Notes under the pieces: model-generated
Databases searched by the model: none
What the model was told of the DNA's origin: nothing
What the model saw: the letters and a program-made list of their open reading frames with translations, nothing else
Made by a program: the position numbers and the translations under genes
From: Escherichia coli
Lineage (GTDB): Bacteria; Pseudomonadota; Gammaproteobacteria; Enterobacterales; Enterobacteriaceae
Assembly (NCBI RefSeq): GCF_044647545.1
Contig: NZ_CP172818.1
Direction: 5' to 3' (one strand)
DNA: 64,000 nt
Part shown: positions 1,608 to 48,492 of the stretch, piece after piece
Position numbering within the stretch: the first letter of the stretch is position 1
How the letters are laid out: each line of letters begins with the position of its first letter

Positions 1608-3449
1608 TCAACGCAGTACCATCAACAGTGCCAGCACCACGACCGCACCGATGCTCATGGATGCCACATACCAGCGCAGATAACCGTTCTCGCTTAACAG
1701 CAGACCTTTACCTGCAAAGCGGGAAAGGACAGCCGGGATGTTCATCATTGAGTTCAGCGGATCGCGTTTCAGCAACCAGGCAATACCCAGGAACGGCTTG
1801 ACGAACACTTTGTCGTACAGCCAGTCAAAGCCCCAGGCGTTGTACCACCAGGTGCCCAGCAGACGGCCCGGCGCACTGTTGGCGATGGAGGTCACCAGAG
1901 TACGTTTACCCAGCCACAGCCAGGCAGCCAGCAGAATGCCGACCACCGCGACCACGCCAGAGGTAATTTCCAGGGTCAACATGCTGCCGTGCGCCAGCTC
2001 TGTCGTTTGCGGAAGCACGCCCTGCAGCGGCGGTACAATCAGTGCGCCAACGAAGGTGGAAAGGATCAGCAGCACAATCAGCGGCAGGCTGTGAGTTACC
2101 CCTTTCACGGCGTGAGCGTGAATTTGTTCTTTTCCGTGGAAGACGATGAAAATCATACGGAAGGTATAAAGCGAGGTCATAAACGCACCGACCAGACCTG
2201 CCACCATCAGATTGATATGACCATTCGCCATCGCACCCGCGAGGATCTCATCCTTACTGAAGAAGCCCGCAGTGACCAGCGGCAGTGCCGACAGTGCTGC
2301 GCCGCCCACCAGGAAGCAGAGATAAACCAGCGGAATAGATTTACGCAGACCGCCCATCTTGAAGATGTTCTGTTCGTGATGGCAGGCCAGAATGACGGAA
2401 CCGGATGCCAGGAACAGCAGCGCTTTAAAGAACGCGTGAGTCATCAAGTGGAAAATCGCCGCATCCCATGCCTGCACGCCAAGCGCGAGGAACATGTAGC
2501 CAATCTGGCTCATGGTAGAGTAAGCGAGAACACGTTTGATATCGGTCTGTACCAGCGCGGCAAAACCGGCCAGCAGCAGCGTAACCGCCCCAACAATGCC
2601 CACCAGATGCAGAACTTCCGGCGTCATCAGGAACAGGCCGTGGGTACGGGCGATCAGGTAGACACCCGCGGTTACCATCGTTGCGGCGTGGATCAGCGCG
2701 GAGACAGGCGTCGGGCCCGCCATCGCGTCGGCAAGCCATGTCTGCAACGGCAACTGCGCAGATTTACCGACCGCACCGCCCAGCAGCATCAGCGTCGCCC
2801 ACATCAGCATGTTATTGCCATCAGCAAAGTGCGCTGGTGCCAGTTCCACCATTTCGCGGAAGTTCAGGGTGCCCAGTTCGTTGTAGAGAATGAACAGCGC
2901 GAAAGCGAGGAACACGTCACCCACACGGGTCACGACGAACGCTTTCATTGCCGCTGCGCCATTCTTCGGATCGGTGTAATAGAAACCGATCAGCAGATAG
3001 GAGCACAGGCCCACGCCTTCCCAGCCGAGGTACATCAGCAGCAGGTTGTCGGCAAGCACCAGAACCACCATGCTGGCGATGAACAGGTTAGTGTAGGCGA
3101 AGAAGCGAGAGTAGCCCTCTTCACCGCGCATGTACCAGGAGGCGTACATGTGGATCAGGAAACCCACACCTGTGACCACCGAGAGCATAGTCAGCGACAG
3201 GCCGTCCAGCACCAGGTTAAAACCGATGTTAAAGTCGCCTACCGACATCCACGTCCACAGCGGCTGGCTGTATGCCTGCTCACCGTTAGCGAAGAAGTCA
3301 ACGCCGATAAAGGCAGTTACCAGCGCCGCCAGGCCCACAGAGCCAACGCCCACGATCGCCGAGACGTTTTCAGACCAACGCCCACGGGAGAACGCCAGCA
3401 GGACAAAGCCAATCAATGGCAAAATAATGGTTAAGGCAAGCATGTTCAT
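1608..3449 (-). CDS. nuoL: NADH-quinone oxidoreductase subunit L
   Basis: 613-aa polytopic membrane ORF, antiporter-like complex I subunit; operon position. Confidence 0.95.
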
Positions 3450-25294: not shown

Positions 25295-25334
25295 TCTCGT
25301 CATCATCCGCAGCTTTGCGCTGCGGATATCGGAA

Positions 25335-25364
25335 CCGGAAATAGTCACTATTTCCGGTTTTTTA
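25335..25364 (+). terminator. Rho-independent terminator downstream of pta
   Basis: Stem ccggaaatag/ctatttccgg followed by 6 T. Confidence 0.65.
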
Positions 25365-25483
25365 TTCTCTTAATTTGCATTAATCCTTTCTGATTATCTT
25401 GCTTAACTGCGCTGCATCAATGAATTGCGCCATCTCACTTTGCATACTTACCACTTTGTTTTGTGCAAGGGAATATTTGCGCT

Positions 25484-27004
25484 ATGTCCGCAATCACTGA
25501 ATCTAAACCAACAAGAAGATGGGCAATGCCCGATACGTTGGTGATTATCTTTTTTGTTGCCATTTTAACCAGCCTTGCCACCTGGGTAGTTCCGGTGGGC
25601 ATGTTTGACAGTCAGGAAGTGCAGTATCAGGTTGATGGTCAAACAAAAACACGCAAAGTCGTAGATCCACACTCATTCCGCATTCTGACTAACGAAGCAG
25701 GCGAACCTGAGTATCACCGCGTACAACTGTTCACGACGGGCGATGAACGCCCGGGTCTGATGAACTTCCCGTTTGAAGGGTTAACCTCAGGATCGAAATA
25801 CGGGACAGCCGTTGGCATCATCATGTTTATGCTGGTGATTGGCGGCGCGTTTGGCATTGTGATGCGTACAGGAACCATTGATAACGGTATCCTGGCGCTT
25901 ATTCGCCATACTCGCGGGAATGAAATTCTCTTTATTCCTGCGCTGTTTATTCTGTTTTCACTTGGCGGTGCGGTATTTGGTATGGGGGAAGAGGCCGTCG
26001 CCTTTGCCATTATCATCGCACCGCTAATGGTCCGGCTGGGCTATGACAGTATTACCACCGTCCTGGTGACTTATATTGCCACGCAAATCGGTTTTGCCAG
26101 TTCGTGGATGAACCCGTTTTGTGTGGTCGTTGCTCAGGGGATTGCCGGCGTTCCGGTGCTTTCTGGCTCCGGGTTGCGCATCGTGGTATGGGTTATCGCC
26201 ACTCTGATTGGCCTGATCTTTACCATGGTGTACGCCTCACGAGTGAAAAAGAATCCTCTTCTGTCATGCGTGCATGAGTCCGACCGCTTCTTTCGTGAAA
26301 AGCAGGCGGATGTTGAACAACGTCCGTTTACCTTTGGTGACTGGCTGGTATTGATTGTCCTGACCGCCGTAATGGTCTGGGTGATTTGGGGCGTGATCGT
26401 TAATGCCTGGTTTATTCCAGAAATTGCCAGCCAGTTCTTCACCATGGGTCTGGTGATTGGCATCATCGGCGTCGTTTTCCGCCTTAACGGCATGACGGTT
26501 AATACCATGGCTTCATCCTTTACCGAAGGGGCGCGAATGATGATCGCCCCTGCCCTGCTGGTGGGTTTCGCCAAAGGGATTTTGCTGCTGGTCGGTAATG
26601 GTGAAGCGGGTGATGCCAGCGTGTTAAATACCATCCTCAACAGCATTGCCAATGCCATTAGCGGTCTGGATAACGCGGTCGCGGCCTGGTTTATGTTGCT
26701 CTTCCAGGCAGTATTTAATTTCTTCGTGACGTCCGGTTCTGGTCAGGCGGCGTTAACCATGCCGTTACTGGCACCGCTTGGCGATCTGGTCGGTGTTAAC
26801 CGTCAGGTTACCGTGCTGGCGTTCCAGTTTGGTGATGGCTTCAGCCACATCATTTACCCGACCTCAGCTTCGTTAATGGCAACGCTCGGTGTTTGCCGGG
26901 TGGACTTCCGTAACTGGCTGAAGGTGGGCGCGACACTGCTTGGACTGCTGTTTATTATGTCCAGCGTCGTGGTGATCGGCGCTCAGTTGATGGGCTACCA
27001 CTAA
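25484..27004 (+). CDS. yfcC: Putative inner-membrane transporter (YfcC family)
   Basis: ORF 25463..27004; start taken at MSAITESK (506 aa); highly hydrophobic. Confidence 0.88.
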   Translation: MSAITESKPTRRWAMPDTLVIIFFVAILTSLATWVVPVGMFDSQEVQYQVDGQTKTRKVVDPHSFRILTNEAGEPEYHRVQLFTTGDERPGLMNFPFEGLTSGSKYGTAVGIIMFMLVIGGAFGIVMRTGTIDNGILALIRHTRGNEILFIPALFILFSLGGAVFGMGEEAVAFAIIIAPLMVRLGYDSITTVLVTYIATQIGFASSWMNPFCVVVAQGIAGVPVLSGSGLRIVVWVIATLIGLIFTMVYASRVKKNPLLSCVHESDRFFREKQADVEQRPFTFGDWLVLIVLTAVMVWVIWGVIVNAWFIPEIASQFFTMGLVIGIIGVVFRLNGMTVNTMASSFTEGARMMIAPALLVGFAKGILLLVGNGEAGDASVLNTILNSIANAISGLDNAVAAWFMLLFQAVFNFFVTSGSGQAALTMPLLAPLGDLVGVNRQVTVLAFQFGDGFSHIIYPTSASLMATLGVCRVDFRNWLKVGATLLGLLFIMSSVVVIGAQLMGYH

Positions 27005-27040
27005 AAATGTTAAGAGCCGCAATTGCGGCTCTTTTTTTCA
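27003..27040. terminator. Bidirectional terminator shared by convergent yfcC and yfcD
   Basis: Stem agagccgc/gcggctct with 5 A upstream and 7 T downstream; overlaps the yfcD stop codon. Confidence 0.6.
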
Positions 27041-27580
27041 TTCTGCCGTTTCAGTCTCTACGGCTTCATTTTTGGCATTGCGCTTCATCCACAACGCCAG
27101 CGCTTTCAGCGAGTCTGGAGTGAACTCATCGCAGCGTGCGGTGATTTCTTCCGGCGTCAGCCAGCAAACTTCACTGACTTCATCTTCCTGTAGGGCGAAG
27201 GGACCGTGAGAGACGCAACTGAACAACGCGCCCCAGACACGGCAATTTTTATCTTCGAAATAGAACTGCCCGTGCTCGGCAAAGGGGACACCGGCAATGC
27301 CCAACTCTTCTTCCGCTTCGCGACGCGCGGATTCCAGCAGTTGCTCATCGGCCTGGACCACACCGCCTGCGGTCGCATCTAACATGCCGGGTAAAAAGTC
27401 TTTTGTCTCGGTACGACGCTGGACCAGAATTTTGCCCATGCCATCATGCACGACGATGTAAGTTGCACGATGACGCAGACACTGTGCCCGCATTTGTTCC
27501 CGGCTGGCTTGTGCAATGACTTCGTTCTCTTCATTGACAATATCCACCCATTCAGTACTTGCCAAACGACGCTGTTCCAT
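27038..27580 (-). CDS. yfcD: Nudix hydrolase
   Basis: 180 aa; Nudix box ([24 protein letters not shown]). Confidence 0.9.
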
Positions 27581-27637
27581 TATCAGGAAACCTTCTTTTT
27601 CTGGCGCTCTTACGGCGCATTTTGAGTTGTGGGTAAA

Positions 27638-28192
27638 TTACGGATTAATCGCGACCTGCGCAATGATACTTTGATCATTGAGTGCGATTACACTAAGTAC
27701 GTCATTATCCAGCATGCCATAACTCGCCGGATTACCGCCTTTAGGAATACTCACCGAGCCGGGGTTGAAGTGGAAAATCTCCCCCCGCTGTTCTGCCACT
27801 GGCAGATGGGTATGACCGTACACCAGCACATCGTTCTGGTTTAAAGCAGGTAGGTTTTCCGGGCCAAAAAGATGACCATGCGTCAAAAACAGACGTTGTT
27901 TTTCCAGTAATACCTGTTGCCACGGCGCGGTTATCGGGAAATGCAGCAGCATTTGATCCACTTCGCTGTCGCAGTTGCCGCGCACAGCGATAACCTTATG
28001 TGCCACTTCATTAAGCCGTTCAGCGACTTTGGCTGGCGCGTAACCCTCCGGTAAAGCATTACGCGGGCCGTGATTCAACACGTCGCCAAGGATCACCAGC
28101 CACTGGGCACCGCTTTGGGCAAACAACTCCAGAACACGTTCCGTCGCCGGTAACGACCCATGAATGTCCGATGCAAACATCAGTTTCATCAC
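27638..28192 (-). CDS. yfcE: Metallophosphoesterase (Mn-dependent phosphodiesterase)
   Basis: 184 aa; calcineurin-like motifs (SDIHGS, GDVLNHGPRN, GHTH). Confidence 0.9.
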   Translation of the reverse strand: MMKLMFASDIHGSLPATERVLELFAQSGAQWLVILGDVLNHGPRNALPEGYAPAKVAERLNEVAHKVIAVRGNCDSEVDQMLLHFPITAPWQQVLLEKQRLFLTHGHLFGPENLPALNQNDVLVYGHTHLPVAEQRGEIFHFNPGSVSIPKGGNPASYGMLDNDVLSVIALNDQSIIAQVAINP

Positions 28193-28195
28193 TCA

Positions 28196-29672
<1,477 letters not shown>

Positions 29673-30111: not shown

Positions 30112-31005
30112 ATGAAGATAGTGATCACCGGAGGGACGGGATTAATTGGTCGCCATTTGATTCCGCGTTTGCTGGATCTGGGCCATCAAATCACGGTAGT
30201 GACGCGTAACCCGCAGAAAGCCAGTTCCGTTCTCGGCCCTCGGGTGACACTATGGCAAGGGCTTGCCGATCAAAGTAACCTCAACGGCGTTGATGCGGTA
30301 ATCAACCTGGCCGGAGAACCGATTGCTGATAAACGCTGGACTCACGAGCAAAAAGAGCGTCTCTGCCAAAGCCGCTGGAATATCACGCAAAAACTGGTCG
30401 ATTTGATTAATGCCAGCGACACGCCACCGTCGGTACTCATTTCCGGCTCGGCAACGGGCTATTATGGCGACTTAGGTGAAGTGGTGGTTACCGAAGAGGA
30501 ACCGCCGCATAACGAATTTACCCATAAACTCTGCGCCCGCTGGGAAGAAATTGCCTGTCGGGCACAAAGTGACAAAACGCGAGTGTGCCTGCTGCGTACC
30601 GGCGTAGTGCTGGCACCGGATGGCGGTATTCTCGGTAAAATGCTGCCGCCGTTTCGTCTTGGCCTGGGCGGGCCGATTGGTTCCGGTCGGCAGTATCTGG
30701 CCTGGATTCATATTGATGATATGGTCAACGGCATTCTCTGGCTGCTGGATAACGAGCTGCGCGGGCCATTTAATATGGTTTCGCCCTACCCGGTACGCAA
30801 TGAACAATTTGCCCATGCGCTCGGTCATGCGCTGCATCGCCCGGCTATTTTGCGCGTCCCCGCAACCGCCATTCGGCTGTTAATGGGCGAATCTTCAGTA
30901 CTGGTATTAGGTGGACAACGCGCGCTGCCTAAACGGCTGGAAGAAGCGGGTTTTGCGTTTCGTTGGTACGATTTAGAAGAGGCGCTGGCGGATGTTGTTC
31001 GCTGA
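30112..31005 (+). CDS. yfcH: NAD-dependent epimerase/dehydratase family protein
   Basis: 297 aa; N-terminal Rossmann motif ([16 protein letters not shown]). Confidence 0.88.
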
Positions 31006-31052
31006 TGTGGTTTACTGCAAACATCCGCCAGTTAACTCCCGGTGTTACAGGA

Positions 31053-46318: not shown

Positions 46319-48492
<2,174 letters not shown>

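Follow-up and report, generated by a model that had tools for sequence, protein, structure and literature searches.

The window, the whole 64,000-nt stretch of DNA analysed here, is Escherichia coli chromosome, and the element considered in this report is a short hairpin between its convergent genes yfcC and yfcD. Positions 25400-27700 of the window are matched in 5425 of the 5426 complete E. coli genomes and carry the annotations yfcC, yfcD and yfcE; the local gene order is pta (+), yfcC (+), yfcD (-), yfcE (-), yfcF (-) and yfcG (+). Gene calls were taken from the Prokaryotic Genome Annotation Pipeline (PGAP) annotation of a strain that is 100% identical over this stretch, together with a listing of open reading frames (ORFs). 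They bear out the gene identities and the convergent yfcC/yfcD layout given in an earlier note, a first reading of the raw sequence. The two genes are separated by a 33-nt spacer, which with the two stop codons reads TAAAAATGTTAAGAGCCGCAATTGCGGCTCTTTTTTTCA (27002-27040), and the features of the junction are as follows.

25484-27004, plus strand: coding sequence of yfcC, a putative transporter, with its stop codon TAA at 27002-27004 (PGAP annotation, ORF listing)
27003-27007, no strand assigned: A5 run, U5 in the yfcD-strand RNA, sharing 2 nt with the yfcC stop codon and set 4 nt off the stem (sequence)
27008-27011, no strand assigned: TGTT spacer, AACA in the yfcD-strand RNA, which breaks the yfcD-direction U-tract
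27012-27033, RNA of either strand: terminator hairpin with a perfect 9-bp stem, arms AAGAGCCGC (27012-27020) and GCGGCTCTT (27025-27033), loop AATT (27021-27024)
27032-27038, plus strand: T7 run, the U-tract of the predicted yfcC-direction terminator; its first two T belong to the last two pairs of the stem, and its final T complements the A of the yfcD TGA
27038-27580, minus strand: coding sequence of yfcD, with its stop codon TGA at 27038-27040, TCA on the plus strand (annotation)
27638-28189, minus strand: coding sequence of yfcE (annotation)

A single hairpin between two convergent stop codons is one of the features expected of a bidirectional terminator, and it is what the 33-nt spacer contains. 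The stem begins 8 nt past the yfcC stop codon and has six G-C pairs among its nine, closed by a 4-nt loop; at the DNA level an inverted-repeat check showed a perfect 22-bp palindrome. The 8-bp stem proposed in the earlier note (agagccgc/gcggctct) is real and extends to 9 bp. The description there of a hairpin flanked by A5 and T7 was right in that both runs are present, but the A5 does not adjoin the stem and the two sides are unequal; the overlap of the A5 with the yfcC stop codon went unmentioned. On the yfcD strand, an A7 run lies upstream of the hairpin. RNA folding of the 38-mer gave -15.9 kcal/mol for the plus strand and -16.4 kcal/mol for the minus strand (z -5.0 and -5.5), with none of 200 shuffles as stable, and a terminator scan picked up the hairpin on both strands.

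This combination of features is not random. Two-sided hairpins were defined by a perfect stem of at least 7 bp with at least five G-C pairs and a loop of 3-8 nt, with T5 on the 3' side and A5 on the 5' side, each no more than 14 nt away. The 64-kb window has one such hairpin, at yfcC/yfcD, and 200 dinucleotide-preserving shuffles contained none. No second copy of the 22-mer was found in the window with up to 3 mismatches allowed. An Rfam scan returned no family at the gathering score, the best match being Leu_leader with 27.6 bits against a required 50; the sub-threshold matches were all on the plus strand and were of a generic, terminator-like kind.

Published 3'-end data, all from K-12 MG1655, were placed on the window by subtracting 2391597 from the K-12 coordinate, a conversion that applies to the left of the T-run. 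Together with the geometry of the hairpin, they define a second set of features.

27006-27009, minus strand: published 3' ends of the yfcD and yfcE-yfcD mRNA, K-12 2418603-2418606 (Term-seq, TRS and SMRT-Cappable-seq; coordinate mapping)
27038-28189, minus strand: two-gene transcription unit yfcE-yfcD, which ends at the hairpin (annotation; full-length SMRT-Cappable-seq reads spanning b2300 and b2299)
28212, minus strand: equivalent of the yfcE-yfcD transcription start site (TSS), K-12 2419808 (published TSS; coordinate mapping)
27039-27042, plus strand: predicted 3' end of the yfcC mRNA, 7-9 nt past the last G-C pair (from intrinsic-terminator geometry)

Three methods from different laboratories agree on the minus-strand ends. 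Term-seq mapped a 3' end at 2418606 and classed it as primary for yfcD (Adams et al. 2021, PMC7815308), and TRS placed ends at 2418603, 2418604 and 2418606 with signals of 0.96-0.996 (PMC10687069). SMRT-Cappable-seq reported a full-length transcript of b2300 and b2299 from the TSS at 2419808 to an end at 2418605, in both M9 and rich medium (PMC6131387). In the letters of the window, the yfcD RNA would end in ...CUCUUAAC, ...AACA, ...AACAU or ...AACAUU, that is, 3-6 nt past the 9-bp stem and 5-8 nt past the last G-C pair. In vivo, the yfcD-direction transcript of K-12 therefore ends just past the hairpin. The earlier note had offered the mapping of 3' ends elsewhere as the test of its terminator; for yfcD, all three datasets place them just past the hairpin, within 27006-27009.

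The SMRT-Cappable-seq read counts also give a measure of efficiency (PMC6131387). In M9, 136 reads started at the TSS, of which 72 ended at the site and 11 passed through it, with four ending within 50 bp downstream; the read-through had a median of 44 nt. In rich medium, 24 of 64 such reads ended at the site and one passed, six ended within 50 bp downstream, and the median read-through was 84 nt. From these counts, roughly 77-87% of yfcE-yfcD transcripts stop at the site, and the few that pass it go only a short way. The authors of that dataset tagged the site 'novelTTS' (PMC6131387), which implies that it was not among the catalogued terminators in 2018. The yfcD-side 3' end is thus already present in three public datasets. 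With its own TSS at 28212, yfcE-yfcD appears to be a unit of its own, apart from yfcF. A promoter scan noted a -10-like hexamer, TATCAT, ending at 28220 on the minus strand, with the TSS 8 nt downstream (feature span 28212-28248).

The two directions differ in what follows the stem. By a classical decaying U-score that starts directly past the stem, the tail in the yfcC direction (UUUUUCAUU...) reaches 4.14, the same value as for the pta terminator (25333-59), and the tail in the yfcD direction (AACAUUUUUAG) reaches 0.51. Taken from the last G-C pair, the scores across Escherichia are about 4.6-4.9 on the yfcC side and 2.1-2.5 on the yfcD side. On the yfcC side, the 8-nt RNA:DNA hybrid that follows the G-C core ranks in the weakest 0.05% of 8-mers, and on the yfcD side in the weakest 3%, using the nearest-neighbour values of Sugimoto 1995. 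On the plus strand, a stable stem-loop within the size range of intrinsic terminators (stem about 5-14 bp, loop 3-8 nt) is followed immediately by a U-tract, for which a length of about 7-8 nt is expected and which counts U7 from the last G-C pair (T6 in K-12). On the minus strand, the stem-loop is stable, and the adjacent tail (UUAACAUUUUU) is interrupted, although U still makes up 7 of the first 11 nt past the G-C core. From its sequence, the yfcC direction is predicted to be a textbook terminator. The direction in which ends have been measured, yfcD, is the weaker-looking one, and the canonical direction, yfcC, is a prediction.

We also considered how the hairpin varies within E. coli and how far it is tied to the coding sequences. 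The stem is invariant in the sampled E. coli sequences, and changes fall in the loop and the T-run. The K-12 allele, with T6 and loop AATT, is matched exactly in 4320 of 5425 genomes (~80%), and the T7 allele of the window in 145 of 5416 (2.7%). The extra T in 27032-27038 is the sole indel relative to K-12 across 8 kb that otherwise carry 117 substitutions. The loop reads GATT in the sampled NU14 and ST131 genomes and in the other minority variants examined. The claim in the earlier note that the T tract includes the yfcD stop codon survives for a single shared base (27038), the rest of the codon lying outside the run. The mutual constraint on coding and terminator sequence that the note drew from this overlap found little support. 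The T6/T7 polymorphism, the overlap of 1 nt and one Escherichia genome (L003) in which the G of the yfcD TGA is lost to give TAA all argue against a tight constraint between stop codon and U-tract. The C-terminal tail of YfcD is variable as well, differing among species, with the best tblastn segments stopping at query residues 171-180. Any coding constraint at this junction is therefore minimal.

A scan for YfcD with one genome per species returned 80 loci and showed that the gene converging on yfcD varies. It is yfcC in Escherichia and part of Citrobacter; pta faces yfcD directly in Pseudocitrobacter, Buttiauxella, Leclercia, Kluyvera and some Enterobacter and Citrobacter. A LacI-type regulator beside PTS-like ORFs (phosphotransferase system) faces it in E. 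albertii, E. whittamii, Salmonella and many Enterobacter and Raoultella. The LacI-type junctions (L006, L007, L029, L077 and about 40 others, near 3040-3060 of the loci) leave 0-6 nt between the stop codons and have no intergenic hairpin, so that both transcripts must end within the opposing gene. The pta/yfcD spacers mostly hold a two-sided hairpin of their own (A6-8, GC stem, T5-8) in which both tails score about 4-5.

Relatives of the E. coli hairpin were recognisable only where yfcC neighbours yfcD. In Escherichia sp. E1V33 the loop is GGTT in the yfcC sense and the A-run is extended to A6; in C. amalonaticus the hairpin reads GGAGCCGC.../GGAGCCA.... In an alignment of 9 sequences, 98.8% of cells were paired and compensatory double changes occurred in 3 of the 9 pairs, and slid-partner controls, in which the 3' partner was shifted by 1-3 columns, gave no compensatory double changes. 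The helix is conserved in these relatives. The C. freundii group carries an unrelated, REP-like (repetitive extragenic palindromic) hairpin at the same junction, so that a hairpin is maintained between yfcC and yfcD while its sequence turns over, and the E. coli element is not ancient. A divergent genome deposited as E. coli SCPM-O-B-8794 (L005, 3040-3245) has a yfcC/yfcD spacer of 198 nt that contains the E. coli-type hairpin twice, with two inverted REP-like elements between the copies. One copy has A-U where the other has G-C, a compensatory change, and each transcript first meets a copy without a U-tract, with the U-tract copy lying only beyond the REP pair.

Among the six convergent junctions in the window, a compact hairpin together with a U-tract occurs only at yfcC/yfcD. 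REP-type hairpins stand at yfbR/yfbS and mnmC/yfcL, and a GC hairpin without tracts (57456-77) lies between smrB and a minus-strand ORF at 57493. The yfcH/rpnB junction (~30985-31033) has a long hairpin without U-tracts across the yfcH stop codon, and the flk and yfcJ coding sequences converge with a 4-nt overlap (47311-47314). Over 57422-59673, collinearity is lost with the otherwise nearly identical strain FDAARGOS_497; that strain has a gene for an AAA-family ATPase and a hypothetical gene after smrB; the window there holds only short, fragmentary ORFs. Two tandem hairpins stand at the end of pta (25305-25365), the first at 25305-27 and the second at 25333-59; the latter leads into a T-run and is one-directional, and published K-12 pta 3' ends (2416961-64) fit this second hairpin. 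Just past the pta terminator and upstream of yfcC lies a symmetric TTAATTTGCATTAA (25370-25383), a candidate FNR site with two mismatches to TTGAT-N4-ATCAA; matches of equal quality number 42 in the window.

Taken together, these data make it likely that the one hairpin in the spacer is the transcript-end element of both convergent units and that it serves them unequally. In the yfcC direction, termination would be Rho-independent, with the stem followed by U5 (U7 with the two paired U) and the RNA ending at about 27039-27042, where it would be antisense to the stop codon of yfcD. For yfcD, the hairpin is followed by a tail whose hybrid is AU-rich at 7 of 8 positions and has no pure U-tract, which would make it a weaker, non-canonical intrinsic terminator. 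Weak termination combined with protection by the hairpin against 3' exonucleases would then yield the sharp yfcE-yfcD end. For this minus-strand end, we favour termination at the site over trimming back to it.

Several points weigh against this interpretation. No plus-strand 3' end of yfcC was found in the Term-seq, TRS or SMRT-Cappable-seq tables. The yfcC gene belongs to FNR Category 1, being directly activated, with an FNR chromatin immunoprecipitation (ChIP) peak and higher expression without O2 (PMC3688515), and the cultures used for 3'-end mapping were grown in LB, M63, M9 or rich medium; FNR-dependent, mainly anaerobic expression, and hence low yfcC expression in those cultures, plausibly explains the missing end. 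The experimental data come from K-12, which carries the T6 allele, and the strain of the window has T7. The covariation derives from 9 sequences, two of them paralogous copies of one locus, and the same changes would keep a DNA palindrome equally well. On the minus strand, the U-tract is broken right beside the stem, where U residues matter most, and its score, counted from the last G-C pair, is about 2.1, where canonical sites reach 4 or more. Downstream on that strand C mildly exceeds G (1.2-1.6), and steady-state ends 3-6 nt past a hairpin are also expected from exonuclease trimming.

The last of these points bear on the strongest alternative, in which the yfcD-strand hairpin is mainly a protective 3' cap. 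Polymerase would read on into antisense yfcC and be halted by Rho or by other means, and PNPase and RNase II would digest the RNA from its 3' end as far as the hairpin; in the yfcC direction, the terminator would remain canonical. There is precedent for this, as Rho-terminated RNAs are trimmed back to stable hairpins and show precise steady-state ends directly after them (Dar & Sorek 2018). The hairpins concerned are without U-rich tails or upstream A-tracts and have a C>G bias downstream, A-tracts being a mark of intrinsic terminators rather than of Rho-type ends (Dar & Sorek 2018). The yfcD end resembles them in lying a few nucleotides beyond a stable hairpin with no clean U-tract in its tail, which AACA breaks, and the downstream RNA is untranslated antisense with a C>G ratio of up to 1.59 in one 78-nt window, at about the 90th percentile. 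It differs from them in its upstream A7 and its moderately U-rich tail (7 U in 11 nt), which by the same authors' account are features of the intrinsic type. Few full-length reads pass the site, and their extensions are short, with medians of 44-84 nt. A bicyclomycin-based table, whose sensitivity is unknown, lists no Rho termination region under the name of yfcC or yfcD. On this mixed evidence, a mainly protective role is rather unlikely, though it is the alternative that we take most seriously.

A second alternative, which we regard as very improbable, is a collision-type bidirectional terminator, at which head-on polymerases meeting at the hairpin, aided by trailing ones, drive termination (Ju et al. 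2019; Wang et al. 2022). The layout suits this model: a convergent pair with a stem-loop at the meeting point, as the model needs, with at least one direction that is non-classical and predicted 3' ends that overlap by about 30-35 nt. The published test case, ynaJ-uspE, is likewise a weak one-way terminator, and other convergent junctions in the window have hairpins without U-tracts, as the model describes. However, the yfcC direction looks fully classical, resembling a strong canonical terminator able to work without a partner. The datasets that list no yfcC end show a sharp and efficient yfcD end, so the collision model is unlikely to be needed, and frequent collisions are unlikely in those cultures since yfcC expression is favoured without O2. 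A related proposal is that anaerobic induction of yfcC changes the yfcE-yfcD transcript ends, through head-on polymerases at the hairpin or pairing of the ~30-nt complementary 3' ends. A weak yfcD and a strong yfcC terminator share one hairpin and yfcC is induced by FNR, so such oxygen-dependent cross-talk, tuned by T6/T7 length, could occur; we consider it very improbable as well.

That the 22-bp palindrome is instead a DNA-level element (a site for a dimeric protein or a REP-like mobile repeat) or a chance palindrome can be dismissed with near certainty, for although the palindrome is perfect and the covariation keeps the DNA symmetrical no less than it keeps the RNA helix, the element is single-copy in the window and absent from shuffles, bears no likeness to the REP hairpins at other junctions, varies at the loop centre in ways that break symmetry while the stem is kept (AATT, GATT, GGTT, AACT), has RNA 3' ends mapped to it, and matches no Rfam family at threshold, with weak matches that are terminator-like. 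Three specific candidates had been considered in this context: a REP element or bacterial interspersed mosaic element (BIME) was ruled out by the single copy at up to 3 mismatches and the dissimilarity to the hairpins at yfbR/yfbS and mnmC/yfcL, and a chance palindrome and a protein-binding palindrome were rejected on the shuffles, the single copy and the junction comparison.

The preferred interpretation, a shared and unequal terminator, places the site among well-known systems. As in a canonical Rho-independent terminator, there is a GC-rich 9-bp stem with a 4-nt loop, an immediate U-run on the yfcC strand, a position at the end of a transcription unit and a tail score equal to that of pta. 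Unlike such a terminator, it has AACA breaking the yfcD-strand U-tract beside the stem, and its Rho independence is a prediction for both strands. The tonB/P14 terminator is the textbook example of a symmetric bidirectional intrinsic terminator. Buttiauxella, Leclercia, Kluyvera and Enterobacter have pta/yfcD junctions of this symmetric kind, and the E. coli hairpin shares with them the single hairpin, the flanking A-run and T-run and the very short 3' untranslated regions. It differs in balance, since at most of those junctions both tails reach about 4-5, against the unequal pair of scores at yfcC/yfcD, and in having a measured 3' end in one direction only. Bidirectional terminators have reportedly been mapped in E. 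coli by SEnd-seq, in work by Ju and colleagues from 2019.

The yfcC/yfcD site is therefore an ordinary transcription terminator of a known kind, and bidirectional terminators between convergent genes are long established and mapped genome-wide in E. coli. Beyond annotation, the finding carries little weight and opens no new question. It does confirm that reading raw sequence, at a first pass, can be enough to locate a shared terminator correctly, with the caution that the best-looking direction (yfcC) is the predicted one and the measured direction (yfcD) has a non-canonical tail. The site could serve as a natural test case for how far a terminator hairpin needs its U-tract, and for distinguishing intrinsic termination from trimming.

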